Below are positions 9,883 to 49,142 of a stretch of DNA of 64,000 bases, piece by piece. The DNA lies in NCBI GenBank assembly GCA_008632985.1, contig QPGO01000303.1, forward strand, positions 1 through 64,000, written 5' to 3'. A program made the position numbers and the translations under genes. How positions within the stretch are numbered: position 1 is the stretch's first letter; the number at the start of each line of letters is the position of its first letter. The notes beneath the pieces are model-generated. The model did not search any database. It was given only the letters and a program-made list of their open reading frames with translations, and was not told the origin of the DNA. The DNA is from Psammoneis japonica. Taxonomy: Eukaryota.

Positions 9883-10119
9883 GTGAATGTAACAGGGTCT
9901 CATGCAACATGCAACTCACCATTTCGGGTCCATGTGCCCAATCTTCCAAGTGGAGTCTGGTGGGAATGAAGATTGCCGCAAGCAAATTTGAAGTCACATC
10001 AGGGACGTGAATGTAACAGGGTCTCATGCAACATGCAACTCACCATTTCGGGTCCATGTGCCCAATCTCCCAAGTGGAGTCTGGTGGGAATGAAGATTGC
10101 AGCAAGCAAATTTGAAGTC
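9883..10119 (+). repeat. Tandem direct duplication, period 124 bp, spanning the host/decayed-DNA junction
   Basis: GTGAATGTAACAGGGTCTCATGCAACATGC...AAATTTGAAGTC begins at both 9883 and 10007. Confidence 0.85.
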
Positions 10120-15294: not shown

Positions 15295-15551
15295 TGTGAG
15301 CTAATGGTTTAATTAGAACTAAGTTGACAAGTGGCCTTGTGATGAACACAGATGAACTAATTGTGATTACTTTGAATTTCGAAAAGGTGAGAAGACGAAC
15401 GTCTCAACAAGTGTTTTCCGATAAGTGTTTGAGATGTCTTCAACAATTTGGGGGCCGTACGTGTAAACAATTTGGGGCCATAGAAATCGAATATTGATAA
15501 TCGGATGTCGTAGATGTCGCGAGGCATAAATAATAGACGTCAATAGTCACA
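15295..15551 (-). repeat. 3' LTR of copia element (257 bp)
   Basis: Matches 21218-21471 with 4 substitutions and one 3-bp indel. Confidence 0.95.
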
Positions 15552-15573
15552 CTCCCTCATTCGATGAGATGGG

Positions 15574-21156: not shown

Positions 21157-21217
21157 CTTGTTGGTTCGGAGAGAACGTTGCTGGTTCGATTAAGAACACT
21201 TTGTCGCAGAGGAAGCG

Positions 21218-21471
21218 TGTGAGCTAATAGTTTAATTAGAACTAAGTTGACAAGTAGCCTTGTGATGAACACAGATGAACTAATTGTGATTGCTTTGAAT
21301 TTCGAAAAGGTGAGAAGACGAACGTCTCAATAAGTGTTTTCCGATAAGTGTTTGAGATGTCTTCAACAATTTGGGGGCCGTACGTGTAAACAATTTGGGG
21401 CCATAGAAATCGAATATTGATAATCGGATGTCGTAGATGTCGCGAGGCATAAATAGACGTCAATAGTCACA
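21218..21471 (-). repeat. 5' LTR of copia element (254 bp)
   Basis: TGTGAGCTAAT...GTCACA followed by TSD CGCAT. Confidence 0.95.
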
Positions 21472-23557
21472 CGCATTTGTAATAGTATTGGCATGCGTAG
21501 TATGTTCCATAAATGGCATACAAGATGCGGAAACTTGTGTGGATCCTGCCAATGATGATGATTCTGGTTCGAATCATCAGCGCTATCTTGCGGATTGTCG
21601 TGATGAGCATGACAAGTGTTCGGATTGGGCCTTGCAGGGACATTGTGAATCCGATAAATATGGTGACTTTATGAAGTCTTACTGTCGGAAGAGTTGTCCA
21701 GATGTGTGTAATGATGGGTAAGGTGGTGCTGTATGGGCGTGATGATCTCCTTTCTGCTTCATACCGTACGGGGTATGTTGTACTGAACTCATGCTTCTTC
21801 TGACAAATGTTGTTTCTTCATCAGATCGCTAGATTTGGGAGAGAGTCAGACTGCCACTGATGAAAAGACACGCGTTCTTATTGCCTCGTCTCTGAAATAC
21901 TTACAGACTGAAGTTAATGTCGACAAAAAGTACAAGCCCAGTGTACGAGCAAAGTGCAAGAATCAACACGAGTTTTGTTCGTTTTGGGCAACGCGGGGCG
22001 AGTGCGAACAGAATCCAACGTATATGCGAGGGAATTGTGCCTTGGCGTGCCAGTCGTGTTATTGGTTTGATGTCTCCTTGCGCTGCCCGTGGGATCCAAA
22101 CAACATTACGGCAGCGTTGGGGCCTGGCGACTTGAATAAGATGTTTGAACGCATCACGACGGATCCAGAATTCAAACAGTACAATCCAACCATCTTGCTA
22201 CAACCACCGGACGGTCCTTGGGTAGTAACCTTGGATGATTTTGTGTCGGAGCAAGAGTGTGACGCACTGATTGAAGCGGGAGGCAAATTGGGATACCAAC
22301 GGTCCAAGCATGCGGAAAGGGGTGTAAACGGAGAATCCATAAGCCAAGTGTCCGAGTTGCGCACATCTTATCACGCATGGTGTCTGGACGAGTGCTACAC
22401 AAGTGAGGCAGCCAAGAATGTTTCGGCGCGCATTGAACGTGTGACCGGGATTGGCGAAACATATTCGGGGTATTTTCAACTCTTAAAATACGAGAAGGAC
22501 CAGTATTACAAGGTACGTTGTGCAGGATGTCAGGATGAGATCTTGACTTTGCGTTGCCGGTACTTTCGCTAACAGACATTGTTCTCAGGTTCATCACGAT
22601 TTTATCCCAACCCATGTCGAGCGACCCATGGGACCACGGCTACTGACTGTGTACATTTATTTGAATGAGCCGGAAGAAGGAGGAGGAACAAGGTTTCCCT
22701 ATCTCGGTGACGGCGGTTTGACGGTACAACCGAAACGTGGTCGTGCCTTGATTTGGCCGTCCGTCTTGAATGACAAACCCATGAGCGAGGATAGTCGCAC
22801 GCAACACGAGGCCTTGCCTGTCATTGCCGGCCATAAGTTTGGAGCCAATGCGTGGATCCACATGGGTGATTACAAAGCCGCCTTTGCTCGTCGATGCCAT
22901 TAGTCTACCAGTAGTATGTGTACTCGGAGTAATGCGTAGGCGAACTCTTTCTACAGCGGTGACTCTTTGCTAGTAGAGGGAAGCAGATGTATGAACACAA
23001 ACAAATGCAACGCGTTTCCCTTTTTATGTTCTCTAGCTAGTAGCATCTCATTCTATTCTTTCTCTCGCGATTGCGGAGCGTTTCTAAAAACACAAAGTGG
23101 ACAGTAACTCGCAAATTGTGTGCATTCATGCACATTTTTAGGTGTGCAAGCCGATCGAAAGCTCTTGATCTCAGCCTTTCAATGGTGAATGTAACAGGTG
23201 ACTGCTGGCAATGCTTCCTTGAGGAATTAGGAGCGACAAACTCCAAAACAACAATGAGACTTGACTGAGAGATAACCTTACCGGTGGGAAATCCAAAATT
23301 CGGAACAATCCGTTCGGACGAAGGGCAGACACAATAGATGATATGTAGGCATTTAATGTCGTATAAAACGTAATACAAACTGAATGATGCACTCCGGTAA
23401 TTAATAAACATTGAAATTTTCAACGGACAAAGATAATCTTAATTCATTTTTATCTATGTTCGATTTCAAATATTACCTTTTCTCAACGGACAAAGATAGG
23501 TCAAAAAGCAAGAAAGAAACACGACGCAAGCAACTGCAACAACTGCGACACCCTACC

Positions 23558-24847
23558 ATGGCGTCCCGACGGAGGGTAAGCAGCAGCTTACACTTTTCAC
23601 AATGGGTGATTGTCTCTATGACACTGTTACTGGTCAGTATGGGGGCAAAAGTCGCTTCCCAGGACGTGGATAGTGGCGATAAGACGTGTTCCAACTCAGA
23701 CGATGAAGAAACATGCCGCAAGGCAGCAGAAATTGACCATGGCGTACCACAAAAGCAAAACGAAGAGGCTACACGCCAAGTTGTTCAAGAAACAATCGAT
23801 TACCTTCAGAATACAGTATACGCTGATTCTGAGTATGAATCGATACGTAGCAGGTGTAAGAATGAACACGAGGAATGCTCTTATTGGGCGAGCATTGGAG
23901 AGTGCGAAAAGAATCCCACTTATATGAATTCACAATGTTCTGCAGCCTGCCAAACGTGTGACATGCTGATCAACGTTGCTCAGAGGTGCAAATGGGATCC
24001 TAGTAAACCACAAGCATGGAAACATGGCGATTTGAATCGCATGTTTGAGCGCATAATGACCGACCCTGATCTAATCGAAAAATACAGTCCAACCATTTTG
24101 TCACAGCCTTCCGAAAACAAGGACGAAGACGGGCCTTGGATCATTACTCTTGATAACTTTATTTCAGAATCAGAGTGTGATTATCTCATTCAAGCGGGTA
24201 TGGACATTGGATACGAGCGATCCATGGGTGGAGCCGCCGAGAAGGGTGAAAACGGAGAATACCTGAGCACCGTGTCCGAGTACCGCACATCGTACCAGAC
24301 GTGGTGCTTTGACGAGTGCTATGAGAGTGAAGCAGCCCGAAATGTTTCGGCTCGCATTGAACACGTGACGGGGGTTGCGGAAATGCATTCCGAGTACTTG
24401 CAATTGCTTCGATACCAACCTGGTCAGTACTACAAAGTTCACGGTGACTTTATCGATGTTCAGGTGGAACGGCCCATGGGACCGAGGCTCTTGACTGTTT
24501 TCCTCTACTTGAATGAGCCAAAAGAAGGCGGAGGCACAAGCTTTCCGAACCTTGGTCCCCTGACGGTTCAACCAAAACGTGGTCGAGCCCTGATTTGGCC
24601 ATCGGTGTTGAATAAAGATTTTACTACACCTGATACAAGAACGGACCACGAGGTATGTTTGGGCGCTTGTTCTGGATTCATTGAAAATGACAACAGTAAT
24701 ACGTGCTCACAACACATTTTTTCTTATTTCTGCAAACAAAATATTCAGGCGTTACCTGTCATTGCTGGTGAGAAGTATAGTGTCAATGCGTGGTTACACC
24801 TGGGAGACTTCAAGGATGCCTATGAACGAAGCTGCAGCTACAATTAG
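23558..24847 (+). CDS. ShKT-prolyl 4-hydroxylase copy 3 (more divergent; one ShKT; intron 24653-24748)
   Basis: Signal peptide after MASRRR, one ShKT domain, and HGD, RLLTVFLYLN and GGGTSFP motifs. A 96-nt GTATGT...TTCAG intron splits the HE|ALPV motif. Confidence 0.88.
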   Translation: MASRRRVSSSLHFSQWVIVSMTLLLVSMGAKVASQDVDSGDKTCSNSDDEETCRKAAEIDHGVPQKQNEEATRQVVQETIDYLQNTVYADSEYESIRSRCKNEHEECSYWASIGECEKNPTYMNSQCSAACQTCDMLINVAQRCKWDPSKPQAWKHGDLNRMFERIMTDPDLIEKYSPTILSQPSENKDEDGPWIITLDNFISESECDYLIQAGMDIGYERSMGGAAEKGENGEYLSTVSEYRTSYQTWCFDECYESEAARNVSARIEHVTGVAEMHSEYLQLLRYQPGQYYKVHGDFIDVQVERPMGPRLLTVFLYLNEPKEGGGTSFPNLGPLTVQPKRGRALIWPSVLNKDFTTPDTRTDHEVCLGACSGFIENDNSNTCSQHIFSYFCKQNIQALPVIAGEKYSVNAWLHLGDFKDAYERSCSYN

Positions 24848-28954: not shown

Positions 28955-28999
28955 CGTCGAAGGGAGCGTTTGGCTTCAGATCCTGAAGATTTTTGTAAT

Positions 29000-30190
29000 T
29001 GCGCGTGGCGCGTGTTTTGTGCGACATGGCAGCCCGCTCTGGCCTGCGGTCAAAGCCGTTTTCAATCCAAGCAAGGGTCAAAAGGCATTGCTCAAATGGC
29101 GTTGGCAGCTGTCCACAAAGTTCGTGCATTGGCTCTTCATGATCCAGCCAGCACATTGCATGGACAAACTCATTGTGACATCATGTGTCGCCAGTCACAG
29201 ACATCCGATTGATTCCAACAACATGCTTCGCCTTCAACAGGGTGTCAACATGTCAGGTTCATCTGACCCAGTGGCAGGTGGCTCGCTCTTTTTGTCCTCA
29301 CACAAATTCATCAAGCAAACAGTGTGCTCCATCAGATCAATCTGCTTGTCAACTGGTGAGGCGGACTGGCTGGGTGGTCTTTTGTCGCTTTGCTTGGGGT
29401 GTTCATTCATGCCGACATTGTCCTCGACGGTTGCACTGCAATCATGCCACTTGCACCTCCTCCTTGAGACTGCCTCCACAATCTTGTCCTCCAATGATTT
29501 TTGGTGCCATAGCATCTTCAAGTCATCAGCTGCCTGAACATGGCTCAGCACCACAGCGCGCTGATCATCGCCACGACGTCAGCCTTCTTTGGTGTGACCA
29601 TTGCCAACACAAATCTTCTTGTGAACAAATTGATGTGGAATCATGTGAGTGCACTTGCAGCACTTCAATGCCAGGTCATGTGCCTTCTTCTTGATGACAG
29701 CCAGGTGGAAATGATGCCAAGAAGCTGCATTCTTGGCCTTGCACTTGGGGCAATTGACAGGGCTTTGCTCGCAGCAGGTTGAGACCCTTGACTGCGTTTG
29801 TCAAAAATCTCTTTGCTTGTGTCACCCAATGTCTGCTTGCCACTGGGGTGATCAACACAACAGTCAAACTTGGATTGCTTCAGCTTGCCGAAGATCTGCT
29901 TTCTCACACCTTCCCTCACCACTGGCATTTGGGCACACGAGCCTTGAATGTCACCGAGACTCCCAAACGCTTCAGAGATTTTCTTGCAGGAAGCCTGCCA
30001 CAAACGCATTTGTGAGATGACATGTTGCCACTCCCAAAAAGCAGGGGATGAACTCCAACCCATTAGTGCTTTCCGTCATCGACAACAACTGCCAGCACAG
30101 GCAACAGGCTCTTCACGATGCTGTCGCTGTTGAACAGCACACAAATGCACAAATTGTGGGGGACAATCTGGAAAGACGCTGACTCCGTCA
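29000..30190. other. Isolated 1.2-kb TpA-depleted island (probable decayed insertion)
   Basis: Only two TA seen between 28997 and 30192; TG/CA-rich and flanked by normal-composition DNA. Confidence 0.65.
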
Positions 30191-30777
30191 TGTAACAATC
30201 ACAATTTTCCAAAATTCATATCGGGAGCACATGGCAGGCATGCCGAACCATCGTGATGTGATGTTTGCTTTGCGGCGGGAGAGGCGCGAAAATTTCGCAG
30301 TTGCTTCCGCACTGCAACTATTAGCGCGCAACACTCGCATTCAACATTATTCGGTACTATCATATTGTATTACGGTATACCGCCGCTGCTGCGAATTCTC
30401 ATTGAGACAGGTTTATGTTTTGTCTATGTATCTACTGGCTGATCATGCTGCCAATGGGCTGGATATTAATCTCGTTGTGATCAATGTACAGCAGCTTCAA
30501 AAGTGATGCAACCTACAGTTGAGGTGTTTAGTTCGAGGTCGGTACTTGCGCACCCTCTAGCTAGCGATCTCGAGCGCACCACTGTTGTCTTCCGAGCCGA
30601 CAAAGGCGTGTCACAAATCAATGTCTATGTCAAAGACATACTGCAGCAGGGTACCTATTACCAAGATGTACCCAGGCCATCAATCTGATACCGAGACATC
30701 CTCCCAGGTTCCACCAATCAAATTGGTTGAATTAACCTAAGTAGAATACCCGTTGCTTGCTCATTACAACTTTCTTG

Positions 30778-31971
30778 CTAACCCCTCATATAAGGAACAA
30801 TGTGCTTTGAAGCAAATGAGCGAACGATTTCGTACTGTTCACTTTCGTCAACCATATCTAACAGGTCGAGTTCGTTCGCAACGTCTCTGTCAGCTGGTGG
30901 TGCAAATAGACTCAACGCACTGGCCATGCTCATTTGAGCACCTTCACCCCCATCAGCAGCGCCTTGCTTGTTTTGCTGTATTCGACCACCACTTCCTGAG
31001 GAAGAGCCAGTATCAGTTCCAGGTGTTGAATGCTGGTCTACCCCATCTGATCGTGAACGCTTTGAATCATGGTCCTTCGAGTGGTTATCATCACGATCAA
31101 ATTCCCTTCGCGCCCTCTTGTTCTTGACGACATCATCCAAAACCGCCTGAAATGGTTGCCGATCAGCAAAGGTGGTCGGGAGGGTGTCTCTAACTGAAGT
31201 GTCGTAAAGGCTATCAAGAAGATATTTTGCAGCCGCTGTGGCTTCTCCACCATCAAGACAGAGCTTATATAGAGCCATCTTTAAATCATCCTCACCTCTT
31301 GCAAACCAAAAGAACGTCCACTTCTGGTTTAAATCTGTCAACACGGAAACAACGGCATGGTTGAGATTTAAATAAGACGCTGCAAAATGTTCACCAATCG
31401 TCTTTGGAGTGTGGTCCTTTTCTCGCAAGTTCTCGGGTGTCTTCAGCTCAAGTAGAGCTTCAATGTTGTTCCGAATTGCTGCGTTGCGAACGTGTTCTAT
31501 TTTTGCGATTACAACATCCGTAGTTCCACTTATTTTTCGGCTCTCCGTCAATTCCCTGAGTAGTTCTACCGTTAACAGCTTCCTGTTTGACTGGGCATCC
31601 GCCAAATCATAACGAGCTGGTATCTGTAGCATATTCTTGAGGTAAGACATATATGCTGTTCGATTTTCCATACAATCTTCGTAACCTGTCTGCCACGAAA
31701 ACCCATCGATGTGCTGCGAAAGAGCAGGTTTATTTGACCAAGAGGCCCCTTTCACAGGCAAAACAAGCATGTCCATCAGGTCATTCTGTGCTTCATACGT
31801 TGCATCTGAAAGCACAATTGTTTTCTTTTTCCTTAAATAATCTTCCGCCATAAGCTCAAGACCGGCCTTCGCCGTTTCAGAAAATTGCGGCGGTTGCAGC
31901 AGCTGCTGCTGCTGCTGCTGCTGCTGCTGTTTGAAGTGATTGAGGAGCGTCTTGCCGAGTATCACGGTCAT
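30778..31971 (-). CDS. Crinkler-like protein with PD-(D/E)XK nuclease-type domain; present start codon lies in the gypsy LTR
   Basis: ISGTTDVVI...LLELK and VLTDLNQKWTFFWF motifs resemble CRN C-terminal REase domains; polyQ from a CAG run at about 31897-31929. Confidence 0.6.
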   Translation of the reverse strand: MTVILGKTLLNHFKQQQQQQQQQLLQPPQFSETAKAGLELMAEDYLRKKKTIVLSDATYEAQNDLMDMLVLPVKGASWSNKPALSQHIDGFSWQTGYEDCMENRTAYMSYLKNMLQIPARYDLADAQSNRKLLTVELLRELTESRKISGTTDVVIAKIEHVRNAAIRNNIEALLELKTPENLREKDHTPKTIGEHFAASYLNLNHAVVSVLTDLNQKWTFFWFARGEDDLKMALYKLCLDGGEATAAAKYLLDSLYDTSVRDTLPTTFADRQPFQAVLDDVVKNKRARREFDRDDNHSKDHDSKRSRSDGVDQHSTPGTDTGSSSGSGGRIQQNKQGAADGGEGAQMSMASALSLFAPPADRDVANELDLLDMVDESEQYEIVRSFASKHIVPYMRG

Positions 31972-32243
31972 CTATATTCATTCGTATATTCATTCGTGGG
32001 TGTCAGCCTGGTGTCAAAAGTGTCAAAAGGATGTCAACGATGACACTTTCTAGAAACCTCTTCTCCTTTCTCGATACATCTCGATGCCTCTCGAAAGATT
32101 GTTTCTTTATATTTCTACGCGGTTTCTTAGTATTAATTCTACGTGATTTCGGAGTAGCCGAATCTCTTTCATTTCTTCTCACAACATTAGCAACAGTCAA
32201 CTTTACAACACTACTTTGTGCTATTACTTGGCGCCACTTGGCA
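31953..32243 (+). repeat. 5' LTR of gypsy element (TpA-retaining copy)
   Basis: Colinear with 36565-36855; 15 substitutions, no indel. Confidence 0.95.
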
Positions 32244-32316
32244 TAGTAAATTTACTCCCAAACACTTATTCATCTCTCTTGAGATATATCTACCGATCAT
32301 ATTGTCCTGACCAGAC

Positions 32317-35300
32317 ATGTCAGCAGAAAACTGCCCATTCGAACTCAAGCGTCCTGACCGCTCTGAGGAAGAGCGACGCAAAGACCAACTCGTGTCTTTT
32401 GAAAGCCCCATTGATCCTGACGATCCAGATGGGCTTAAAACTACGATCGAGGTACGCAAGTTAGCTTCAACTGAACCGGAAGATGTTCTTACCTTCTGGT
32501 CAAACTTCGATGAACTTGTCAACGATCTCGGCACGGCTGAAGGACAGCCACGTTTCCGGCTCGTGACCAGACTTATGACCGGAACACCAAAAGACGACTG
32601 GGAAATCGTCGTAAACGAGTGCGAAAACCGCGACCAAGTTACATTCGACACTTGTCGTGAAGAATTTCCACTCCAATGCGTGGACAGAGAAATTGCCCTT
32701 GACACTGAGGAATGGCTTCAAAGCCTTGAGAAACCCAGGAACCAAACTGTCAAGTCATTTGTTAATGACATCCGTCGCTTTAATGAGTTGATTGATGTCA
32801 TGCCTGCGCCAACCGAAGATGACGCCGAAAGAGTTCTGTCATTCACGGAAGCGGAGTTGTCCGTGATCCTTCGAAAATGTGGACCAAGATCATGGGCCGA
32901 AACTCAGACTGAAGCCCGTCTTCGCAACTTAAACTTGAACGACCAAGCTCAATGCTACGAGACTCTCCGACGTATGGAACAACGTGGTGACAAAGGGTCT
33001 GCCGACAACAACAGACGCAACAACAATCGGAGTCGACGCAACAACGGTTGAAACACGCATCGCGGCCAGAATGACGACCAAAATCGCGACACCAGGAACA
33101 GGAACCAAAACAATCATGAACAAACATGTCCAATCCATGGCGTTGTACATCCGAACGGTCAAGAGTGCAATGTCATCCGTCGTGAACGTGAAAATTATGA
33201 GCGGAACCGCGCAAATCGGAACGCGCTGAATCAACAAAACAACTCTCGAAACGAGCCGACACACCGCTGTCCTACACGGAGCCGCACACGGAACGTCGAA
33301 AACAACAATGTGGACTCCAAAGCCAGTCGTTCCGCTTCTAACGATGTCGACAGCGTCGCGTCAGATGATGTCAACGACATTTTTGAAGACGTCACGTCTC
33401 TTCCAGACGATTCCATTGAATCCGAAGTAGAAGACAATCTCACCACGGAAGCGCGTGTCCAGATGATTGATGCTCATTCTGGAATGCACAAGTTCCGTGT
33501 TGCTTTACTCGATGCCGGCGCAAATCGCAATTTTGTGAAGCGCTCAGCCCTTCGCGGGATTCCTCACAAAATCCGTAAATGTGACGTTCCCGTTAAAGGC
33601 CGTTACAGTGCCGTTGATCTACACGAGATTGCGACGCTGACATTGAAGTTCCCAGACTTCGCATCGTCCAAGAAGGTTTCCGTCGATGCTCATGTGGAAG
33701 ACAAAGCCGCAGGAAAACACGACATTATCATCGGAAGAAAAACCGCCACAGAAATGGGACTCGTTTTTGATTTTCGACATCAAACAATCACGTGGGACGA
33801 TGTCACCCTATCCATGCGATCCAAGGGCTCTTTCGACCAAGTCGAAGTTAATGCAATTCATCCCGGCGATGCTGAATTACCCAAGTTCTTCCAGAATGCC
33901 GTCAACCGTCAGGTTCGAGGTATGACGAGCAATGCGTGCGACAAGCACAATTGTCGCGACATGGTTCTATGCTGCAAACACCTTGACAACGATCAACAGC
34001 ACCAACTCATCAAACTCTTCGGACGATGCCCGCAATCATTCGATGGTGCACTTGGAGCTGCACCCGGTAAACCCGTCCATTTGACCCTGAAACCAGGATC
34101 GCGTCCACACTGTGCGAAAGCTCACACCATTCCGCAAGCGTCACATCCCATGGCTCGCAAAGAAGTGGATGAATTGGAAAAAATCGATGTCATTACGCGC
34201 AAACTTCACTCTCCTTGGGGCGCATCCTGTCTTTTCCGATCGAAGAAAAGCGGTGGCATCCGTTTCTTATCCGATTTACGGAAACTCAACGAGTGTCTCG
34301 AACGGCATCCACATCCACTGCCTGTTGTCGACGACGTGGCATGGAAAATGAACGGCTTTACCTGTGCGACATGTTTGGACCTCAACCGAGGCTACTGTCA
34401 CTTCGTGCTTGACGACGAGTCGAAAAAACTCTGCGGCATCATCCTGCCGTGGGGCAAGCATTGCCACAACCGCCTGCCGCAAGGAATCAAACCGGCAAGC
34501 GATGTTTTTCAAGCTTACATGACAGATGTTTTTCATGACATGGAAGACATCATAGTCTACATCGACAATGTCATCCTCTTTACCAAGAACAACTTCAACC
34601 ATCACTGTCAACGACTCGAACTCGTCTTGCAACGGCTCCTCGCGAACAATCTTCACGCACATGTCGAAGAATCCTATCTCGCCGCCAAGACCGTCGACTG
34701 CTCAGGCCACACCATGACTGCAAAAGGCACTCAGCCTCAGAAAAAGAAAATCCTACCCTCACTTTTTCGCTTTGCTCGCCCTCAAAACCGTCGACAATTA
34801 CGTGGTTTCATCGGGTTCGTGAATTGTTGCAAGAAATTGTGGCACCGACGCAGCCACACTCTTACGCCCTTAACTGCGCTGTCATCAGACAAAGTCAAAT
34901 TCAAGTGGACTGACGTCCACACGGAAGCTTTCAATCAGATGAAAAAAATTGTGGCGCGCGAAATCCTCCTCCGATTCCCCGACTTCTCTCAACCTTTCAA
35001 GATCTATCCGGATGCGAGTGATCATCAACTTGGTGCAGTGATCACTCAAGATTTTGACGATGGCGAATGGCCAATTGCGTTCTACAGCCGAAAATTATCT
35101 CAAGCACAACGAAACTGCACGACAATGGAAAAAGAGCCACTGTCGCTCGTGGAAACGACCGAAAATTTCAAAAGCATCCTTTTTGGTCATCGATGCTACC
35201 TGTTTGCCGATCACAAAAATCTTGCATTTGACAAATTCAAGTCAGAACGCGTCAAACGCTGGCGTTTACTTCTCGAGGAGTGCGATTACTCTTTCGAGTA

Positions 35301-36543
35301 CCCACCAGGCCACAAGAATGTCGTGGCTGATTTTTTGAGTCGCCATCCTGTTGTCCAAGTCGATCAAAGCGATTACGAGGAAATGACTTCGTTGGAAATC
35401 GATCCTTCGACATTCCCCGTTACTTTCGACATTATCGCCGACCATCAGAAAAAAGATTCTGCTCTTCAGCAACGACTCGACAAGTCCGAATCCCACTCAG
35501 CCGAACTGTTCAACGGAAAACAGATTGTCCTTTACAAGAACAAGATTGTCCTCCCTCCAACGCTTTTTCCTGCAGTTCTACGGTGGCACCATGAAACTCT
35601 CTGCCACCCTGGTGCTAATCGCACCTGCCAAACTTTGGCTTCACATTTTTACATTCGCGACATGCAGACGAAAGTCCGCACTTTTGTCCGCAAGTGCCGC
35701 ACGTGTTCCAAATCCAAGCGCACTGCGGCAAACTGTGGCGAATTACCTCTTCCAGATGCCACTTGTAAACCTTGGCAGGCAACTCAAGTCGATCTTTTCG
35801 GTCCCTGGACGCATGCCGACAAAAATGGTGTCGATCGCAAAATCAGAGCCGTTTCAATTGTTGATGTCGCAACCCGTTGGGTCGAACTCGCGAACTGTGA
35901 GTTCAAAACGTCCGAAGACATTTCACTTGTCGTCGATCGCGAGTGGTTTTGTCGCTGTCCGCGACCAGAAATTGTCATTTATGACAACGGTTCCGAATTC
36001 ACTTCCGAGTTTACAGATCTCCTCTACAGTTATGGTGTTAAACCGAAACCCACAACAATCAAGAATCCTCAAGCCAACGCGTTCGTTGAACGCATTCATC
36101 AAGTGACAGCCGATTCTCTCCGTGCGATGGATCTCCCTTCTCGCGATCATGATGAAGACACAATTCATGGAATTTTGCAATCCGTTGCATGGGCCTTGCG
36201 CAGTGCCTGCCATGCTGCCCTTGTGTCGTCTCCCGGACAAATTGTCTTCGGTCGAGACATGGTCATTTCTGCTGCTTGTCTTGCGAACTGGAAAATGATT
36301 GATGCCCGTCGCAAGCGCGATGTCCTGCGCAATGATCTCCGCGAAAACGCAAAACGTCTCACTTGCGACTACAACATCGGCAATCAAGTCTTCGTTGTGA
36401 CCAAAGACATCCAACGCAAACTCAACACCAAAGATGGTCCTTTCCGCATCGCACGTGTCCACACCAATGGAACCGTTGCCATCCAGCGCTCGCCTCACGT
36501 CACTGAACGTATCAACATCCGCCGTCTTCACCCTGTCTTCTAA
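32317..36543 (+). pseudogene. Gypsy gag-pol, single frame with one TGA at 33049-33051, inactivated by substitutions
   Basis: ORFs 32317-33051 and 33310-36543 share a frame. Motifs LLDAGA, DLRKLN, LPQG, YIDN (for YIDD), DASD, EKE, DHKNL, HPG, VDLFGP, DNGSEF, NAFVER and GPF. Confidence 0.9.
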
Positions 36544-36564
36544 CGTCTCAATTGGGGAAGCGAG

Positions 36565-36855
36565 TGCCGAGCATCACGGTCATCTACATTCATTCGTGTG
36601 TTCATTCGTGGGTGTCAGCCTGGTGTCAAAAGTGTCAAAAGGATGTCAACGATGACACTTTCTAGAAACCTCTTCTCCTTTCTCGATGCATCTCGATGCC
36701 TCTCGAAAGATTGTTTCTTTGTGTTTCTACGCGGTTTCTTAGCATTAATTCTACAAGATTTCGGAGCAGCCGAATCTCTTTCATTTCTTCTCACAACATT
36801 GGCAACAGTCAACTTTACAACACTGCTTTGTGCTGTTGCTTGGCGCCACTTGGCA
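36565..36855 (+). repeat. 3' LTR of gypsy element (TpA-mutated copy)
   Basis: 13 positions where the 5' LTR has TA read TG or CA here. Confidence 0.95.
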
Positions 36856-36966
36856 CGTCTGCCTGCCCAGAACGCTCAGCTGATTGAATTCATCCGCCGA
36901 TGTCCCCCCGTGCTCCAGCCATCCTCAAAAGTCAGAGCCATCGATTTGGTCCCAGGGAGTTGTCAT
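36856..36966 (-). pseudogene. Orphaned original N-terminus of the Crinkler-like gene
   Basis: Reads MTTPWDQIDGSDF*GWLEHGGTSADEFNQLSVLGRQT and joins LLNHFKQQQ in frame across the TSD. Confidence 0.7.
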
Positions 36967-37339
36967 GGTTGCCTTCAATTGTTTGTTGTCTCGCCGTGAT
37001 GCATTGACTCTTGTTGGCAGCTGTGTGTTGCACTCCTCCCCATGCATCACGCCTCCATGCGGCTCTCTGCTGACGTGTGCTGATGCTGCACGGTTTTGGC
37101 GGAACAGTGTGGGTGCGCACGAAGGAACACACAGAACTGCACAGAGTTTTGCGCGTTCGACAGTGATCAACGTTGCTGCAGACAACTCCCACTCAGGGTT
37201 TCGAACCCCTGGCCTCCTGCCCAATGGTTGCGATGAACCACTCCGCTGTGAATTCACAGTGTGGCATGCATGCAGACAAAAGGTCATTTTTGTCACGCCC
37301 TTTGTGACATTTAAAGGCTGCAACACGTCGCCGTGACAC

Positions 37340-39298
37340 GTTGACTCTTGTCAGCAGCTGCACATTGCACTGTCAACAATTTCTTGTCGCTTGAGTTTGA
37401 GCCTGCCCACAGCAGTGCTGCAGCCGAAATGGACATTGTGCGCTGGATGTGCAACATGAGGATCTCGCACCCCATGGAGGACATCCACCCAGTGGATGAT
37501 GATGCCACTGGGGCTTGCCGAACAATGAAGCATCACCCCAACCTCATGGCGATGCACACTTCTGTCCAGTGCGGCCATGGTGTTGCACAGACTGGGTGTG
37601 ACTTTGGCGATGCTCCAAACCCTTGCAACTGGGGTGGGGGCTGGTCTCAGAGCCGCCAACAGTTGGCTCAATGTGCTTTCCATGTCCCGAATGTCGTCGA
37701 GATCATGCAGCCTTTTTTTGCTGAAATTTGAATTCCCGGCTCCTCCTGCGGAAGATGATGTCTCTTCATTTGCCCAAGCCTTGCCGGACACTCTGAACCC
37801 TGGTGTTTTTCAGGATGGTCTTCGCATCTCACCGACCTTTGAACACCACGTCAATGACAACTTGCATGCGGACGTTCGTGATGTCTCACTCCGGACTGTC
37901 TCGGCGAGCGCACTCACCATCTTCATTCTCCAAGGCTTTCCTCATGAAGAAGTTCTGAATGCCTTGAGTTTGGAGAAGCTCAACCTCCTCCTTCACTGGG
38001 TTCACAAGCTCCTTGGGAGGCTGTGCAATGCCAGGAGGTTGACTGTCGGCATGCCAGACTACAAACGCGATGAGCTCCTCACTGTCCTCCTTGATTGGAC
38101 AGACAAAGTCAACCACCTCTTGGGGGAGGCGGCTTCTTCATTGGGGGCCTTGGAGAACCACACCCGACACTGTCCATGGGCCCGTTGTTGGTTTTTTCAG
38201 CTCCAGAACAATCTCCGGGCGGATCTGATTGCCAGGTGCCATGTTGCCCAACGCACATTTGCCAAGTCTGGTCATCGTGACCAAATTCTGGACCAACTTC
38301 CCCAAAAGCTCCTCTGCCGTCTGGAACCTGTTCTTGCAAAAGAAAAAGCCCAGAGCTCGTGTGCAATCTCCGGATTAAAACCACGGTGTCAAAGTCGCTT
38401 TGGTGGTCCTTGCAGTTTGTCCGACGACATGTTGAATCAACTCCCAACCCTTGGGAAGCTGAGATTGGAACGATTGTCCCACGTGATCCCCACTGTCAAG
38501 GGATTGGCGATGCCAGCGGCCTGGGTGGTGGCAGACATTGCCAAGAATTTCAATTTTGGTTTCTCGTGCTTTGGGGACCCGAGATCCAAAGAGGAGTCCA
38601 CTTGCGATCGGACTCTCCGGGCTGTGTTGTGATGAACTCCCTGGAGTTCATCGTTTCAATTTTAGTCCTGGCTGGCATCATTGCTTTCATGGAGTCCATC
38701 GATGAGCCATTGGACCCTGACCTGGTCTCGGCTCTCTTTTCCCAAGCCATCCTGGAGAACCTGGCAGTCAGGATGCGGACCGACAACATTGTTGGCAACG
38801 GGTGGCAGATCAGTTGTGCTACGAGCTCTCTCCAAGGCCAACAGCTGCTTTTAATTTGGTGTGCGCTCCGCACTCGGGCTCATCTTGGCCCCAATTCTGG
38901 AGGCGTGCACTGGTCAGGCGACCAAATGCAATTGGCCGATGACACATCTCGACCGTCTGACATTCACCTGCCTCATTCCGTTCGTGTTGCTCAGCTGTGT
39001 CAGAAGCATCCTTTTCTGAGGACTTGGACCTTTTTCCTCCCGAGTCAAGAGCTGCTGCAACTGCTCCACTCTCATCTGTTCTCCGAACTGCCGCCGGTCC
39101 CTGTCGAGACCCCGCAGCGCTCAGGACAGCTCGCACGAGATGCACCCACTGTTTCAAATTCACCAAGGATGTGAAGTGGAGTGCGGATGATCTGGAGATG
39201 CTCATGGAAAAGCTCCCGGAGCGTCGCTGCCTGACAGAAATTGAAGGCAAATGGCAAGAATTCAAACAACAACTCCTTGCTGCTGTCCAAACAGCAGA
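37340..39298 (+). mobile_element. Degenerate DIRS-like retroelement RT/RNase H
   Basis: Frame-broken motifs DDATGACR..KHHP, FGD...CNW, HHVND (for YVDD), GDASGLGGG, NSLEF and TDN. Confidence 0.6.
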
Positions 39299-42200
39299 TG
39301 AGTCTCCGCTCAGAGACCGTTGCAGGAGCCGAAAGACGTGCAAGTCGGTACAATCGGGCTGCTGTCATCATTCTTGTGAGCCTTGTGGCTCGAAAGCAAA
39401 CTACATCGCGCGCGAACGCGCGGAACTAAAGCACACAAAACTGTGCGCGGCAAACTAAACAGCGCGCGACATTTCGCGCGCACCCAAATCCTGTTCAAAT
39501 CCTGTCACTCCCCAGTTTGCTTGAGGAGCCACAGAAACAGATTCGACTTTGGATGGAATGAAGTTCCAGAACATGAGGGGGCGGAGAAGGTCCCAGATTT
39601 GGGAGTGACCCCAATGCTTGCTGAGAATGTCAGCAGGGTTGCGGGAGCCTTCGATGAAGTGGAACTCAAGGTGGCCAGAGGCAATTGCCTCACGCACACG
39701 GTGGAACGACAGTGCGGTGTGTCGCTTGTGTAACTTGGAGTGCGGGATGGTGGCACTGTCTACAACTGACTTGTTGTCACCAAACATGTGACTGACATTG
39801 CAGATCGGGACGCCAAGGTGGCGCAGGGTGATGCGCAGGTCAACAATCTGCTCGACACAAGTCCTTGCGGCAACAAATTCAGACCCGCAGGTTGCAGTCT
39901 CCATGGTGGCTTGCTTCTTAGAGAACCAATCAGCCGGGAATTTGTTGAGGAAGTGGAGCATTCCCATGACAGAGCGTCCGGTGAGCATGCAATGGTGCAA
40001 GTTTGCATCGACGTAATGGGTGGCAGTGACGAACTTGCCAAGGGGCGGTGGAGCGTCCTTCGGGATCATCTCTTCTGCTTCGCCGCACACGGAATGCATC
40101 CATTCACAGGCCGGAGCAGGGAGATCCGAGTGGTCGGGCTCTTCCGTGCGAACGCGGAGAGCGCCGTGTCGCATCTTGGAGAGGTGCCCACAGACGCGTT
40201 TGGCACGATCCAAGTGGCCTTGACGGGGCACAGCTCGGAAGCTAGAGAGTGACATGACGGCCGTGGCAATGTCAATTCGACCAAGGGACACTGCCCATTG
40301 GAGTGAACCAACAAGAGACTGGAACTTGTGAATGCCATCGGGCCCCAGCAGTTTGGAAGTGTCTGGTTCGGGGTGGTCACCCTTCTCCAGAGGTGACAGG
40401 GCGTTGGTGGCAGGTTTCTCCCCAAACAGTCGGGCACAGCTGTCGACCATGCGCTCGATGTACTTGCGCGGAGACAGGCGTGAGGTTCCGTTGGGATCCC
40501 GGGAAAAATCGCAACCCAGATGGAACTCAATGGGTCCCGCACCCTTGAGCTTGAACTTGCACTTTTCCGTGAGAGTGTCGACGAAAGATTGAGGGTCCTT
40601 CACAGCAATGGCAAGGTCATCCACACAAACGGCAATGTGTTCACAGTGGTCGCCGTTCCTGCGCATCCAAATGTCGGGTTCGGCGCGGCAGGGGAAGAAT
40701 CCTTCAGCTCACAGGCAGTCGGCGAAGCGCTCGTGCCAGCGGAGACCAGAGCTGCGCAGTCCACACAGGGCCTTGTGGATGACAAGGATGTGTCCTTCGA
40801 GTTTGCCAAATTCGGGTCCGGCTGCAATGTAGAGCTTCTCCTTGGTGGTGGCTTCAAGGCAGGCATTGCCAATGTCGGTGGCCCATGTCTCCAACTCGTT
40901 GAGTTCGGCCAGGAAAATCATCAGCCGAAGGCCACGGAGGGAGACTGCTCCGGAGTGGACACTGTCGACAGGTGCGTCCGTGAGGTGCCCATCGGCTGCG
41001 AGTCGTGCCTTGTGGTGACCGTCGTGTTTCACGTCGTGCACTGGGTGCACTCAGATCTTCTTGTGTCCTGCAGGAGGAGTGGAAGACTCGAAGGGCCCGC
41101 AGTCATGGAAGACTTTGCATTCCTCGAGTTGGTCCATCTCGAGATTAGTTGCGTCTCCCCATTTGCAGTTGCCATTGCGTTCGTCTAGTGACATGGCGTG
41201 TTTGCAGTTCCGGGGAACTTCGCATCCGCACTTGCAGCGAGGTGCAGTGTGGAAGGAGCAAAGCTTGGCTTGGTTGGCCATGCGAAATGGCTTCTTTTGG
41301 CGCCTCGCGATGGTGCGGAACCGCTTCCAGCCATCAGTGTCGAGAAGTCTGTTCTCTCGTGCATAGATGGTGCAGGTGACGGGGTCATCCTTGGCGATGA
41401 TGGCAAGAGGCTCGGACGTGATCTCCCCACTTTCCCATTCAAGCATGATGTTGTAGCTTGAGCCTTTCCAGGTTGGGTCATGAGGCTTCAGAGGTCCTTC
41501 GTGTGACACGATGCATCGAAATTTCCAAACAGCAGTGTCTTCGTCTTCTTGCTCAATGTGATTCATGATGTCGTTGCAGGCAAGGACTTCCTCACATTCG
41601 TCATTGTTGACAGAGCAGACAAACTCAGTGAGCTCGGGATTGCCGTTCACTTTCCATTCGTGTTCTTCGACGGCCTTGACGATGCGAGCTCTGTGGCATT
41701 GTCCATCCTCTTGTGGCTGCATGAGGAAGGTGCGTCCAATGATGTCTTGCGGATCGAAAACTGGCATCTTGGGTGTCCTGATCTCCCCACCAGGAGAATC
41801 GACGGGGTTGTCGTCATGGCGAGATTCGATGATGGGTTCAGGTGGCTCCCCATCAGGAGGATCAAGACGCAGGTTTCGAACGGCAGGATCGGTGGTGGCG
41901 GAGCGTACGTTGGACCGGTGGAGGATCTTCTGAGTCTCGTCAGAGAGAATCTTGAAGGTCATCTGGTGGCCGACGTGCTCAGCAATGCCAACAAAGCGTC
42001 CACGCAACTCACAGGATTCGGACGGCCAATCGGAGTCATCGAGGTGGAAGTGCACGGGTTCCCACCAGTGAAAGCGAAGCAATGGGCTGATGTCCGGGGT
42101 GGAGCCAGTGAGAGTCTCGAGGGGCGTGCACCAGTGGAGACGTGGGGACGCTGCATGGTTGAGTGTGAAGCACACATGCATGAGCGCCAGCAGCCATGTG

Positions 42201-43075
42201 TGGGCGGGCGAACCAAAACGATCCATGACAGTGTTTGCCATGCACTTCACGGTCTGGTGTCGACGCTCGGCAAAGTTTTGGTGTTGCTGGTGAGGCTCAC
42301 TTTGCCAGCTGGAGATGAAGAGGGCTCGTAGGATCCCGAGCACCTTGTTGCTGATCTCAACTTGAGCACGGTCACCAATGAGTTTGGATGGGGCACCACG
42401 CTCCCGGATCTGATCCTCGAGTGTGTTGACAAACTCTTTGTCCGTCTTGGTGCCGTGGACGTCAGTGACGGTAGACTCGGTGCCAACAAACAGTTGGGCG
42501 CTGGTGCAACCAGAGTCGACGGCCGGGGTGTTGGCACAAACGGTGTCAGTGGCAACAGGCTCGTTGCGGCGGTGCACATTAAGGGTGGGGTTGGGTGATT
42601 TGCAGGCCTTCCTAAGGTGTGTGCCGGTGGGCATGCGGACGTGCTGCGTGGTGCAGTCAAAAGTACGACGGACCGCATCGGCAGGGAGGAAGCCAAAGTG
42701 GGGCCGAAGAGACTCGAAGGGGGGGTCCTTGGGCTGCACAGTGCGCTCCGGGGGCGGAATGTCGTCGTCCTTGGGGTCAATCGCGTGTAGATGACACTCG
42801 TAGAACACGTCATAGTTCGGAATGAGGTGATCATCGATGGCAGACGCTTGATCGGCAGACAAGGAAGCGGACATGATGGTCTCGTTGACAACGACACGAT
42901 GACGGCAGTTGCCGCATTCGTCAAATGGGTTGGCAGTGGGATCGTCCTGCAGGTCAGAGATCGCGTCGCACCACTGGTCATTGTCAGTGACAGTGATCAA
43001 GGATCCCATGTGTCATCACCGGTGAGGATGACATGGGGCAGGGTGTCCCATTCAGCGTCAGTGCAAGGTTGAAGT
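39299..43075 (-). mobile_element. 5'-truncated second Ty1/copia (CoDi) element: integrase-RT-RNaseH plus probable 3' LTR (about 39299-39507)
   Basis: One frame 43009-39455 with two TGA stops. Motifs ATDT, DRAQVE, QNFAER, HKARL, DIGNA, CVDD, YVDAN, GSEF, GDN and ADILSK; PPT GGGGAG precedes TGACAGG at 39507. The left LTR edge is uncertain. Confidence 0.9.
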
Positions 43076-46000
43076 GCCCCTTGTCATCCATTGGGCACCC
43101 AAGACAATCAAAAGAAGGAATGCATCATTCTGAGATTCGGCTGAGTGGTGCAGCAAAGCGATCGGTCATGCAAATGCAGGCAGAGCACCAGCGTGGGCGG
43201 AGCAGGAGTTCTCACTGTGCAACAGAAATGCAGCAGCACAACAGCCCCATTTTAGAATTTCGCTTGATTCCGCAACGCATTCCGCATCACAAGAGCTCCA
43301 GAGATGACACGCCACATTCCGACCACAACACGGAAAGTGAAGCTGTTGCATTCCGTGCCATTGGTTGAGCAAAAGGAATCCACAAACAGAGTGCAGCAAA
43401 AGGAGCAGCAAATGGAATCTAAAACAAATGGCCTCTGTTTGACAAACGAAATGGTGAAACGGAATGTGCAAATTGCGTCTTGGGTGCGGAATGAGCACAT
43501 GCGTTGGAATGTGATGCGGACTTTGACGAGGCTTTTTTCATTTTGCACCGTGTTGTTCACATTCTGTTTTGAGGCCTTTTGCGACGGAGTCATGCACACA
43601 TTCCGTGCGATTCTGTGGATTCTTGTTTCCTGTGGTGTGTCGCAAAAGATTCTCATGCGCAGGAATTCCAAAATGTGATTCTTCTGCACGAGGGACACTG
43701 TCAGTTGCGATTGACATCATGACACAGGGCTTTCATGCTCTGTCTCAACCTCTGGCATCTGTCACTTTTGTCTCAGTTTGGTGCTTGCAGAGGGACAGAC
43801 CAGTGCCATCTTCCTGTGCTGCAGGCACCGAGGATGGAACGTGGGGCTGCGTTCCCCACATGCAAAGATGGCGGGCTGCCCTCAGCTGCTGTCATGACAC
43901 TCATTCTTGCATCATCAAAGCTGTGCATTTCTGAGTGTGGTTTTCTCCATTTGTCTGCAGCAGGCCATGCTGCTGCCGTGCTTGCTGCTGCCTTTCTTCT
44001 GGCTTCTTTGTTGCCAGGCAGTGCATCCACAGCACACACAGCGCCACAAAAGGAGCGAAACGACATCGTTGCTCAAGACAAGGCTTGAAACGCTCACACT
44101 TTTTTGTGGTCCAGCAGGACCTGCTCTGGCACACATGCTGCTTGAAAGTTTGCCACAGCATCTGTCACTTCTCTCTCCCACATTGGCGCTGACCAAGATG
44201 TCTTTGCAGCCACCATCTCTCGACTTGCCAGAGTCTGCATTGACACTCAGCAAACCGCTGGATTGACCAGGACTTTTTGAGATGTGACACAGGTTGATGG
44301 CAGGTTTGTCATGTGTGCTGAGGAAGGCTGGGCAGTCTTGCCAATGGTCTGCCAAGCTCACTCATCACACAAATCTCATCATGACAAGAAATGGCCAGCC
44401 CACCCTTCTTGCACTGAAGAGCATGTTGAGTGAAAAACTTGCATCAGGTGTGCACTCCAGTGGAGACATGTCACAGTTTCTTCTGCAATCTGACATTTGA
44501 CATCTTGTTTCTGGGAGCCATGTGCACCTGACATTGCCCGGCCTGTCAGCTCCTGGGTGGAGGTCCAGCCACCCCACATGTGAGCACCAATGCAGGAACT
44601 GGTGCAGGCTGTGCATCATTTCTGGGACCAATCATGCCAAGTTCCCAGCCCCCCCCCCCAGCCCTGGCATTGTTGTGAGAAACTCATGTGTTGGGTGGCT
44701 TGGGTCACTGGAATGCTGGAAAATGAGTGAGCAGGTGGGTGGAGGCAAGGGGCAAGAGAAAAACACAACAACAGAGGCCAGAATGCATGGAGATGAGGTG
44801 GATGACAAAGAAAGCAGCAGCAACAGAGAGCCTGCTGCAAATGTGCAAAGATTTGCTGAAATGTCAATGAGATGCAAACAGCGGCAAAGGATGCTGCAAA
44901 ATGTCTTCATTGCAAGTCTTTTGTGAGACTCTCCAAGTCATGAAGGAAACTTTGGATGCTGCTGACTGTGCAGCAGCTGCAGCTTCAAAGCTCTTCTCAT
45001 TCAAAGATTTTGGCTTGTCATCAGTGTTTCCAGAGAGCCGCTGATGGTCACTTGTGTGTGGCTTTAACGTGATCCCCTTGGCAGCCAAGGCACCATTTCA
45101 TGCCTCTTCTGTGGATCCCCATGCACCAGGAGTGGCCAGGACTGGAGGTTCAAGAGCCACCAATGCCTCTGGCAACTGAGCTGTGTGACTTGCCAATGCA
45201 GTTTTGACACAGATCAGAAGGAATGAGAATGTGAAGAGATGTCTAGAGAGAAGCCAGCCAAGAGAGCTGCAAGCTCAACTCTTGATTTTTCTTTGGGTGG
45301 GTGATTGTGCAGAGCTGCCCTTGATGTCAGCAGGCCCAAGTCAGCGCCCTTTCTTCTGCTGGGGCAACAGCAAACAGAAAGTCAGAGCAAGTGGCAGCAG
45401 CAAATTGGTTGGTTCTTGGGGGCTCTCAAATCACCATTTGTCTTTCTCCCAAGTGTCTGGCAGTCTTGGGGCAGGGAAGAGTGTTTCTTCCCCGGACACT
45501 GGCAAAGTTCAACTTTTCAATGTGCCAGTCAACACATCTCCAAATTCTTGGAGATGAGTGTGCACAATGTCAGGAGATCAACTGGAGCTCATTTGACCAG
45601 ATGTGCCAACCCATGTGCATTGGGTGTGAGATGGACTTGTGAGCAAGTGGCTGTCCATCACATGCAAGCTGCGCACTGCTGTGCACTGCACACAAACCAG
45701 ACATGCAGCATGCGCGGCTTTAAGCTGTGCTGTGTGCTTGCTGTGAAAGCAGCACAAATGGCACATCACCTGAAGAAAATTGCTCAGATGGCACAGCATG
45801 TGAACCTTCCATTGCAGCAAAGGGGCTGCTGGATGCTGTGATCAACTGTGTGGAGGAGCCCAAGGTTGGGGTGTTGTGGACAAAGTCAGGGAGCAGCACT
45901 GTGGCACAACTCTTGGCCATCACCACCCATGATGTTGCTTCCTCACACAACAAGGCCACAGCCAGCCCTGCTTGAGTTTGTTGCTCTCAGGTGACTCATC

Positions 46001-49000: not shown

Positions 49001-49142
49001 TTTGACATGGTCACCCATTTCCCACCATTGTTTCCATTGCTTTACAAAATTAACAAAATTGTTGGCAACAAACCAACACTGTGTGGTGTCTTGTGGTGGT
49101 CTCAAGGTGAGAGTAAAACAAGCTGTGCTCGGTGCTCGACAG
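43076..49142. other. Extremely decayed TpA- and CpG-depleted block running into the assembly gap
   Basis: Roughly a dozen TA in 6 kb, few CG, and no recognisable protein motifs. Confidence 0.75.

Follow-up and report, generated by a model that had tools for sequence, protein, structure and literature searches.

Asymmetric loss of TpA between the long terminal repeats of a Ty3/gypsy retrotransposon in the diatom Psammoneis japonica: probable footprint of a DNA-level hypermutation with sharp borders

Introduction

The stretch of DNA analysed here comprises the first 64,000 nucleotides (positions 1–64,000, forward strand) of contig QPGO01000303.1 in assembly GCA_008632985.1 of the diatom Psammoneis japonica, and is referred to throughout, at its full length, as the window. 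At 31953–36855 it carries a Ty3/gypsy long terminal repeat (LTR) retrotransposon, which is placed between a normal gene region on its left and, on its right, a domain of repeats from which the dinucleotide TA has been almost completely erased. The two LTRs of this element differ nearly always in the same way, the 5′ LTR having TA where the 3′ LTR has TG or CA. As outlined below, this asymmetry is probably the edge of a chromosomal hypermutation that acts on the DNA itself after integration and converts TpA to TpG or CpA in transposon and repeat DNA of this diatom, in domains with sharp edges. In terms of base pairs this would be a transition of A:T to G:C within TpA, whichever strand is affected.

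Materials and Methods

The two LTRs (31953–32243 and 36565–36855) were aligned with MAFFT, and the observed/expected values of TA, CpG and CA+TG were computed per 500 bp over the window. Borders in TA content were placed by a three-segment change-point fit of TA/(TA+CA+TG) over 30100–40000, with support intervals of 2 log-likelihood (lnL) units. The gag-pol region was aligned with that of seven relatives (47–50% identity), each of which has it as one continuous open reading frame (ORF), and related gypsy elements for comparison (including L001, L002, L013 and L014) were taken from metagenome contigs. The background share of TA-type differences comes from four other duplicate pairs in the window, a fifth pair (2 differences, 0 of TA type) being excluded. 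Contigs from public sequencing runs were aligned to the stretch (1833 pieces, 493 of them at least 99% alike); the depths given for them are sums over contigs, not copy numbers. Runs X2 and X3 contained little or none of the stretch and carry no evidential weight.

Results

The gypsy element and the host gene beside it

The features of the element, and the host gene that adjoins it, are the following:

30778–31971, minus strand: host ORF, conserved diatom protein of unknown function; best match 79% identity, normal TA content
31948–31952, no strand: left copy of the target-site duplication, CGTCT, identical to the five bases at 36856–36860
31953–32243, plus strand: 5′ LTR, unconverted; 20 TA, observed/expected 0.80, 0/20 TA lost
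32244–32317, plus strand: leader between the LTR and the gag ATG, TA-rich and unconverted; 8 TA in 32244–32300
32291–32703, no strand: change-point interval (2 lnL support) from a normal TA fraction (0.237) to a partly converted one (0.096)
32318–33051, plus strand: gag ORF (Retrotrans_gag), terminating at the in-frame TGA 33049–33051
33052–36543, plus strand: pol ORF (protease motif, RVT_1, RNase H, integrase), an open frame of 1163 codons
36554–36564, plus strand: purine run GGGGAAGCGAG adjoining the 3′ LTR, by its position a putative polypurine tract
36565–36855, plus strand: 3′ LTR, converted; 13/20 TA sites now TG (9) or CA (4), at LTR positions 8 to 274
36856–36860, no strand: right copy of the target-site duplication, CGTCT, identical to the five bases at 31948–31952

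The element is a Ty3/gypsy LTR retrotransposon that lies on the plus strand and derives from a single insertion. Its two LTRs, each of 291 bp, have the termini TG...CA and stand between the copies of a target-site duplication, and its domains are arranged in the order gag, protease, reverse transcriptase, RNase H, integrase, a layout that is common to the seven relatives. Because the two copies of the 5-bp duplication are shared and the TG...CA ends are in place, one insertion is indicated, the LTRs of which were once identical. The gag frame of 246 codons and the pol frame of 1163 codons, 4.2 kb in all, are collinear with the seven relatives and show no frameshift. The TGA at 33049–33051 that divides gag from pol is absent in 7/7 relatives, and TA loss provides no explanation for it. 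Alignment of the public contigs to the stretch indicates that the family is multi-copy in the sequenced sample; within the window, a self-BLAST revealed no further copy of the LTR beyond these two, nor one of the element.

The host ORF at 30778–31971 overlaps the left end of the element, its first 6 codons, the ATG included, being read from the spared 5′ LTR in antisense. All its named matches are diatom proteins. It is without about 55 N-terminal residues that are present in 5/5 aligned homologues, and a tblastn search found no remnant of this missing part in the window. If the gene were expressed from the 5′ LTR, active chromatin at the start of the gene would be a natural reason for a border at this place. 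The named proteins among the best 120 matches to another ORF of the window, AP-3 delta, likewise come from diatoms (12/12).

Differences between the two LTRs

The alignment of the LTRs has 291 columns and no gaps, with 276 identical and 15 different positions. At 13 of these the 5′ LTR has TA, facing CA in the 3′ LTR at four sites (31960, 31975, 32131 and 32155) and TG at nine (31986, 31988, 32076, 32109, 32111, 32189, 32213, 32223 and 32226). The only difference of another kind is an adjacent pair, GT at 32143–32144 versus AA (CGT>CAA). These counts agree with the initial annotation, in which 13 of 15 differences had been described as TA to TG or CA and assigned to the 3′ LTR, with CGT>CAA as the remaining change, TA retained at all 13 sites of the gene-proximal LTR, and both kinds of change present, so that both strands are hit. 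The 5′ LTR contains 20 TA (observed/expected 0.80), whereas the 3′ LTR contains 7 (0.33).

A 13:0 split between the LTRs has a two-sided P of 2.4e-4, and Fisher's test on the TA sites lost (0/20 versus 13/20) gives P = 1.3e-5. When the gypsy LTR pair is pooled with that of a copia element in the same window (see below), 17/19 substitutions are of TA type, as against 29/350 in the four other window duplicates (binomial P = 6e-17). In related gypsy elements the spectrum is ordinary, the TA-type differences amounting to 16/119 (two tandem copies, L001), 1/12 (an LTR pair, L002) and 1/3 (L013). The LTR pattern is beyond chance. As estimated from this one LTR pair, the loss is 1.05 per TA site versus 0.0017–0.0034 per site for all other LTR changes, i.e., TA is lost about 300–600 times faster than other substitutions accumulate. 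Neighbouring conversions lie on the same strand in 3/3 close pairs of the LTR and in 2/5 among the tyrosine codons described below (own count). Also by our own count, a pyrimidine follows the changed A in 19 versus 7 informative sites, which is suggestive only. Short repeats inside the LTR, used as a guide to the ancestral letter, are evenly divided, one repeat favouring each LTR.

Direction of the change

The interior of the same element supports a change from TA to TG or CA and not a gain of TA. In the 38 columns of the protein alignment in which at least 6/7 relatives have tyrosine, the gypsy element has cysteine (TGY) in 15, histidine (CAY) in 8, tyrosine in 11 and another residue in 4. 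Tyrosine to cysteine is its commonest private substitution, and with each of the seven relatives taken in turn as the focal sequence no change from tyrosine to cysteine or histidine was found. A second line of evidence comes from the amino acid replacements I>V, T>A, N>D, K>E, M>V and S>G, which require A>G in the first position of the codon. A T stands directly before the changed base in 22/28 of these, versus 0/14 in the reverse class; of third codon positions at large, 383/1410 are T. Moreover, the coding region contains 67 TA versus 199–232 in four full-length relatives (L001, L002, L013 and L014), and observed/expected TA in the interior is about 0.25 (0.16–0.34) versus 0.50–0.83 in 24/25 related loci, the 25th being a match of 126 bp only. 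These three lines within one element support a loss of TA from the 3′ LTR, and lend no support to the case named in the initial annotation as its refutation, namely a gain of TA in the 5′ LTR of the kind seen in repeat-induced point mutation (RIP).

One codon retains both outcomes. At 35023–35024 the window reads CAT and 5/5 covering contigs of other copies read TGT, in a codon that is tyrosine in 6/7 relatives, so that a single TA has been lost by two routes. The converted share is alike by three measures, being 13/20 (65%) in the 3′ LTR, 23/38 (61%) at the conserved tyrosine codons, and a 60% loss as measured by the TA fraction (0.096 versus 0.237). CpG is not depleted in the gypsy interior (observed/expected 1.2–1.6).

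TA-erased domains and their borders

The conversion extends over the whole gypsy interior, and TA is almost absent from about 18 kb of the window; neither had been mentioned in the initial annotation. On the 500-bp profile the gypsy element is the mildest case. Three TA-erased domains together contain 49 TA in 18,129 bp versus 1,290 TA in 33,743 bp of normal sequence:

10015–14892, no strand: second large TA-erased domain, CpG-poor
28997–30064, no strand: isolated TA-erased block with sharp edges, 1 TA in 1068 bp
36861–49043, no strand: saturated repeat domain; per 500 bp, TA 0–0.28, CA+TG 1.3–2.1, CpG 0.0–1.0
39458–40708, minus strand: weak copia reverse transcriptase remnant inside the saturated domain (Pfam match)

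These domains end abruptly, within tens of bases. The longest run without TA measures 1,645 bp, and observed/expected CA+TG is 1.3–2.1. The TA values of gene regions are 0.3–0.98, and those of unaffected sequence 0.4–0.98. The domains are mostly CpG-poor (0.0–0.5) and their GC content is 0.44–0.60; the window has no AT-rich, TA-rich blocks. Their content is mostly unidentifiable, as only 1/40 ORFs of at least 130 codons has a Pfam match, the weak copia-type reverse transcriptase listed above. Between 37001 and 49000 there are 15 TAA, 15 TAG and 262 TGA, the last a normal number; with TAA and TAG nearly gone, long overlapping false ORFs result on both strands. The repeat at 37028–37400, beside the 3′ LTR, is extremely abundant in the sample, its summed contig depth being 77,757–125,408 versus 147–247 in the unique left flank. 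Within the domain at 10015–14892 an inverted duplicate (10183–10578 / 11597–11988) has CA versus TG in 11/20 adjacent double differences, an ambiguous signal that fits the independent loss of one TA or equally of one CpG.

Across the gypsy element the TA profile is a step and not a gradient. The TA fraction of TA+CA+TG is 0.237 in 30102–32490, 0.096 in 32497–36816 and 0.021 in 36818–39998, with support intervals of 32291–32703 and 36754–36947 for the two change points. The leftmost conversions inferred in the element are at 32419 and 32457. The unconverted stretch reaches 340–750 bp in from the unique left flank and covers the 5′ LTR and the leader, extending no more than a few hundred bases into gag; beyond this 5′ end the element is evenly converted, to about 60%.

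The few TA that survive in the saturated domains are unevenly distributed over contexts. Relative to normal density, TTAA stands at 0.52, CTAA/TTAG at 0.23 and CTAG at 0.11, and no residual TA is found as ATAT, ATAA/TTAT or ATAC/GTAT. The surviving TA are the sites at which neither strand reads TA followed by a pyrimidine, a bias that hints, suggestively only, at the neighbour preference of an enzyme.

The copia element and other features of the window

A copia element on the minus strand adjoins the second large domain:

15295–15552, minus strand: copia 3′ LTR, adjoining the TA-erased domain 10015–14892; TA lost at 3 of 4 differing sites
21218–21472, minus strand: copia 5′ LTR of the same element; TA lost at 1 site

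The two copia LTRs are 98% identical, and 4/4 of their substitutions are TA versus CA or TG, with no other kind present. TA is normal in the interior of the copia element, itself a repeat. The gag-side kilobase at 20209–21191 is TA-poor, with 7 TA in about 1 kb and observed/expected values of 0.09–0.20 in 20001–21000; the process may have acted here too, over a short patch, or the values may reflect the composition of a low-complexity coding region.

The start of a 1.7-kb duplication (8178–9896 / 21472–23198, 89.6% identity) coincides exactly with the end of the copia LTR. The differences between the two copies have an ordinary spectrum (15/156 of TA type), and the duplication overlaps ORFs related to a 2OG-Fe(II) oxygenase/ShK gene at 23408–24847. 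Among the related elements from the metagenome contigs, L001:414-9783 holds two tandem gypsy copies that are 97.3% identical over 4.7 kb and have normal TA (0.61) and an ordinary spectrum.

Discussion

Timing, position and a possible mechanism

In the replication of retroelements the same parts of a single RNA serve as template for both LTRs, which are identical at integration. Since those of the gypsy element now differ, the change was made in the chromosome after insertion, and since both derive from one RNA, an editing step that precedes or accompanies reverse transcription cannot have set them apart. The initial annotation had disfavoured RNA-level editing fixed by reverse transcription on account of the two strands, and this conclusion stands on the stronger ground of LTR copying. 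Moreover, as identical targets lost 13/20 and 0/20 of their TA, sequence or repetition alone is insufficient and position matters. The earlier proposal that targeting follows chromatin position rather than sequence alone can accordingly be kept as regards position, which the 13:0 split and the steps of 0.237, 0.096 and 0.021 favour, while its chromatin part is a matter of inference. The process is specific for one dinucleotide, runs in one direction on both strands, acts after integration, stops at step-like borders and has saturated older repeats.

The probable sequence of events is as follows. The gypsy element inserted where the host gene meets an old repeat block that was already free of TA. 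After insertion, about 60% of its TA sites were converted from approximately 32.3–32.7 kb to the end of the 3′ LTR, and the 5′ LTR and leader beside the host gene lost none. The conversion of TA outran the decay of CpG, that of the gypsy element being still intact. The borders may follow silent chromatin that is kept off the gene-proximal LTR, and the agent would be an enzyme. The leading candidate is an adenine deaminase of the ADAT2/TadA kind that acts on DNA, such as has been proposed for Bigelowiella natans.

Several observations weigh against this reading. Both the link to chromatin and the enzyme are deduced from a footprint in the sequence. The isolated block at 28997–30064 resembles a single repeat affected alone, and fits a targeting of elements as well as a spreading of domains. 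The direction at the 13 LTR sites rests on the element interior and the neighbouring domains and not on other LTR copies; none of these sites is among the rows listed in the table of differing letters of the aligned contigs. The contigs covering the stretch come from one sample, possibly the source of the assembly itself, and so are no independent witness to the bases, and at positions 32144 and 37067 the window letter is present in none of them. Because contig building loses rare variants, the missing letters decide nothing and leave the window alleles unconfirmed at these two positions. No contig linking the left flank to the 5′ LTR was found among those aligned, which stop at a CTG repeat.

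Alternative explanations

The spared 5′ end might be secondary: once the element had been converted throughout, gene conversion with an unmutated family member as donor could have replaced its first 0.35–0.75 kb, in which case the asymmetry would be uninformative on position. The many family copies (the 1833 contig pieces, 493 at least 99% alike) provide donors, and the clean step of the border is what a conversion tract would give. However, the 5′ LTR has a private T at 32144, where 4/4 covering contigs and the 3′ LTR have A, which is unexpected after overwriting by a common copy; the copia pair shows a like polarity, with more loss beside the TA-erased domain (3 versus 1); and a random tract gives no reason why the border should adjoin a host gene. 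We regard such an overwriting as improbable. GC-biased gene conversion was rejected, as it is not tied to TpA and no other A or T of the LTR was changed except at 32143–32144. An unlikely explanation, though one that deserves attention, is that the losses are the passive by-product of a TpA-specific base modification in silent repeats (e.g., an oxidised thymine that mispairs with G, or a deamination-prone modified adenine) and need no dedicated editing deaminase. Modified thymines occur in protists, and TpA, being self-complementary like CpG, suits a symmetric mark that can be maintained; both decay routes end at CA or TG, and the CpG-poor state of the oldest TA-erased domains (0.0–0.5) points to modified, silenced DNA. 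Nevertheless, the sequence gives no evidence of such a mark, and the young element loses TA long before CpG (1.2–1.6), so that the two processes are at least separate. The context bias of the residual TA (TTAA 0.52; none as ATAT, ATAA or ATAC) is enzyme-like as well, although a modifying enzyme could share it.

An artefact of assembly or base calling, in which long reads miscall TA in repeats and polishing with short reads corrected only a few hundred bases near unique sequence, is very improbable. The spared 340–750 bp are about the reach of paired short reads from the unique flank, the sequencing platform is not on record, and the best run contains 0.54 of the sampled words, roughly what conversion-free words alone would give by a rough estimate. 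The supposedly unpolished interior retains frames of 246 and 1163 codons with no frameshift, however, and the LTRs differ by 13 clean transitions without an indel. Also, converted alleles are found in the contigs of the run itself at positions at which the window shows TA or the other conversion (35745, 35766, 35023–35024), the copia interior has normal TA in spite of being a repeat, and the old domains have lost CpG and coding capacity too, like truly decayed DNA. Editing at the RNA or complementary DNA (cDNA) stage, whether by an ADAR/ADAT-like conversion of A to I in the genomic RNA or by deamination of cDNA while it is single-stranded, and fixed at insertion in either case, has a still smaller claim to belief. 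A 5′ U before the edited A is usual for ADAR and ADAT, according to a recent preprint (Mettrop et al., bioRxiv 10.64898/2026.01.13.699255), and minus-strand cDNA of the interior and 3′ LTR, being single-stranded longest, could in principle lead to a spared 5′ LTR. RNA editing would, however, leave the LTRs identical and is expected on the sense strand only, whereas sense-strand T>C makes up 4/13 LTR and 8/23 tyrosine-codon changes; cDNA editing predicts only plus-strand T>C, yet plus-strand A>G accounts for 9/13 and 15/23, respectively. Neither predicts that neighbouring DNA outside any recognisable LTR element is fully TA-erased. The reverse change, a classical RIP-like conversion of CpA/TpG to TpA in the 5′ LTR only, deserves almost no credence. 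It involves the same dinucleotides, and CpA>TpA is its textbook signature, but the polarity in the coding region is reversed (tyrosine to cysteine or histidine at 23/38 conserved columns), TA is ordinary in the 5′ LTR (0.80) and depleted in the 3′ LTR (0.33), and the AT-rich, TA-rich blocks that RIP leaves are absent, with a GC of 0.44–0.60 in the affected domains. Moreover, RIP is expected in a fungal host with the RID/DIM-2 machinery, whereas the present host is a diatom, and a duplication-triggered process is expected to hit both copies, whereas one LTR lost 13/20 TA and the other 0/20.

Relation to known hypermutation systems

The closest counterpart to the hypermutation proposed here has been described in mutation-accumulation lines of Bigelowiella natans. 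Of the new nuclear substitutions reported for these lines, 231/302 fell in two integrated viral regions. A>G or T>C made up 230/231 of these, every one of the 230 at TpA, and the rate was about 1000-fold that of the genome (Mettrop et al., bioRxiv 10.64898/2026.01.13.699255). The preprint also reports 124 clusters in the genome that are depleted in TpA and enriched in CpA+TpG, an enrichment for reverse transcriptase and DDE domains among TpA-poor genes, and the proposal of an ADAT2-like deaminase that acts on DNA; it contains no mention of diatoms or retrotransposons (10.64898/2026.01.13.699255). No report of TpA hypermutation in diatoms was found in the literature searched, the coverage of which left out most subscription journals. 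In P. japonica, too, A>G and T>C changes at TpA occur on both strands (13/15 gypsy and 4/4 copia LTR differences), are confined to regions of mobile or repeat DNA with host genes spared, proceed at a rate orders of magnitude above that of other LTR changes, and leave clusters with TpA depletion and an excess of CpA/TpG. The footprint matches that of B. natans in all features that a sequence can reveal. There are, however, differences. B. natans is a chlorarachniophyte, i.e., a rhizarian, whereas the present host is a diatom, a stramenopile; the targets are LTR retrotransposons and anonymous high-copy repeats instead of the giant-virus and virophage inserts described there; and the depletion saturates (observed/expected about 0, with loss of CpG in older blocks) versus 0.45 in the nucleocytoplasmic large DNA virus region reported for B. 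natans. New mutations were observed directly in the B. natans lines, while here the process is known from its footprint. On the other hand, with an LTR pair the process can be placed after integration and one of its borders located within a single element, neither of which was possible with the B. natans data. What is new is best filed as a diatom case, on LTR retrotransposons, of the TpA>TpG/CpA hypermutation described in a chlorarachniophyte.

The likeness to other systems is partial. Like the RIP of ascomycete fungi, the process is a hypermutation by transitions at a particular dinucleotide, which disables transposons within the genome itself and skews dinucleotide composition. Unlike RIP, which converts CpA to TpA, it destroys TpA, raises GC, makes no stop codons and removes TAA and TAG, and it treats two identical LTRs differently, so that duplication alone is not the trigger. 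ADAR hyper-editing and ADAT/TadA editing resemble it in that A is read as G with U or T immediately 5′ of the edited A. Position 33 of the anticodon loop, 5′ of the A edited by ADAT/TadA, is U in every tRNA, and ADARs are not strictly bound to UA. Both act on RNA substrates, whereas the change seen here lies in chromosomal DNA, was made after integration and affects both strands. The decay of methylated CpG is similar in that a self-complementary pyrimidine-purine dinucleotide turns into CA or TG in silent repeats, and the oldest domains show both losses. TA loss differs from it by being A:T>G:C and not C:G>T:A, and by being much faster, as the young gypsy element has lost about 60% of its TA with its CpG untouched.

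Concluding Remarks

In the literature searched, the 2026 preprint on one chlorarachniophyte is the sole earlier description of a hypermutation that strikes invading DNA at TpA and raises its GC content. It is quite possible, and is put forward here tentatively, that the footprint is the work of a dedicated defence of diatoms that edits the adenines of TpA in the chromosomal DNA of silenced transposons, with borders set by active host genes, and that this is the same system as in Bigelowiella. The LTR pair adds that the process acts on chromosomal DNA after integration, that sequence identity alone does not trigger it, and that its border beside a host gene is a few hundred bases wide; any mechanism is thereby constrained to be post-integration, position-dependent and faster than CpG decay. 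There are practical consequences as well. Dead repeats show long false ORFs since TAA and TAG have been erased from them, and dating by LTR divergence is badly inflated in such genomes unless TA sites are masked. If true, such a defence would be the GC-raising mirror image of fungal RIP, crippling proteins, for example by the replacement of tyrosine with cysteine or histidine, while their frames stay open. If it is the Bigelowiella system, it would either be ancient in the lineages of stramenopiles, alveolates and rhizarians (SAR) or have evolved repeatedly. Its footprint on ordinary LTR retrotransposons of a diatom would imply a wider eukaryotic genome defence, at work in ecologically dominant algae.

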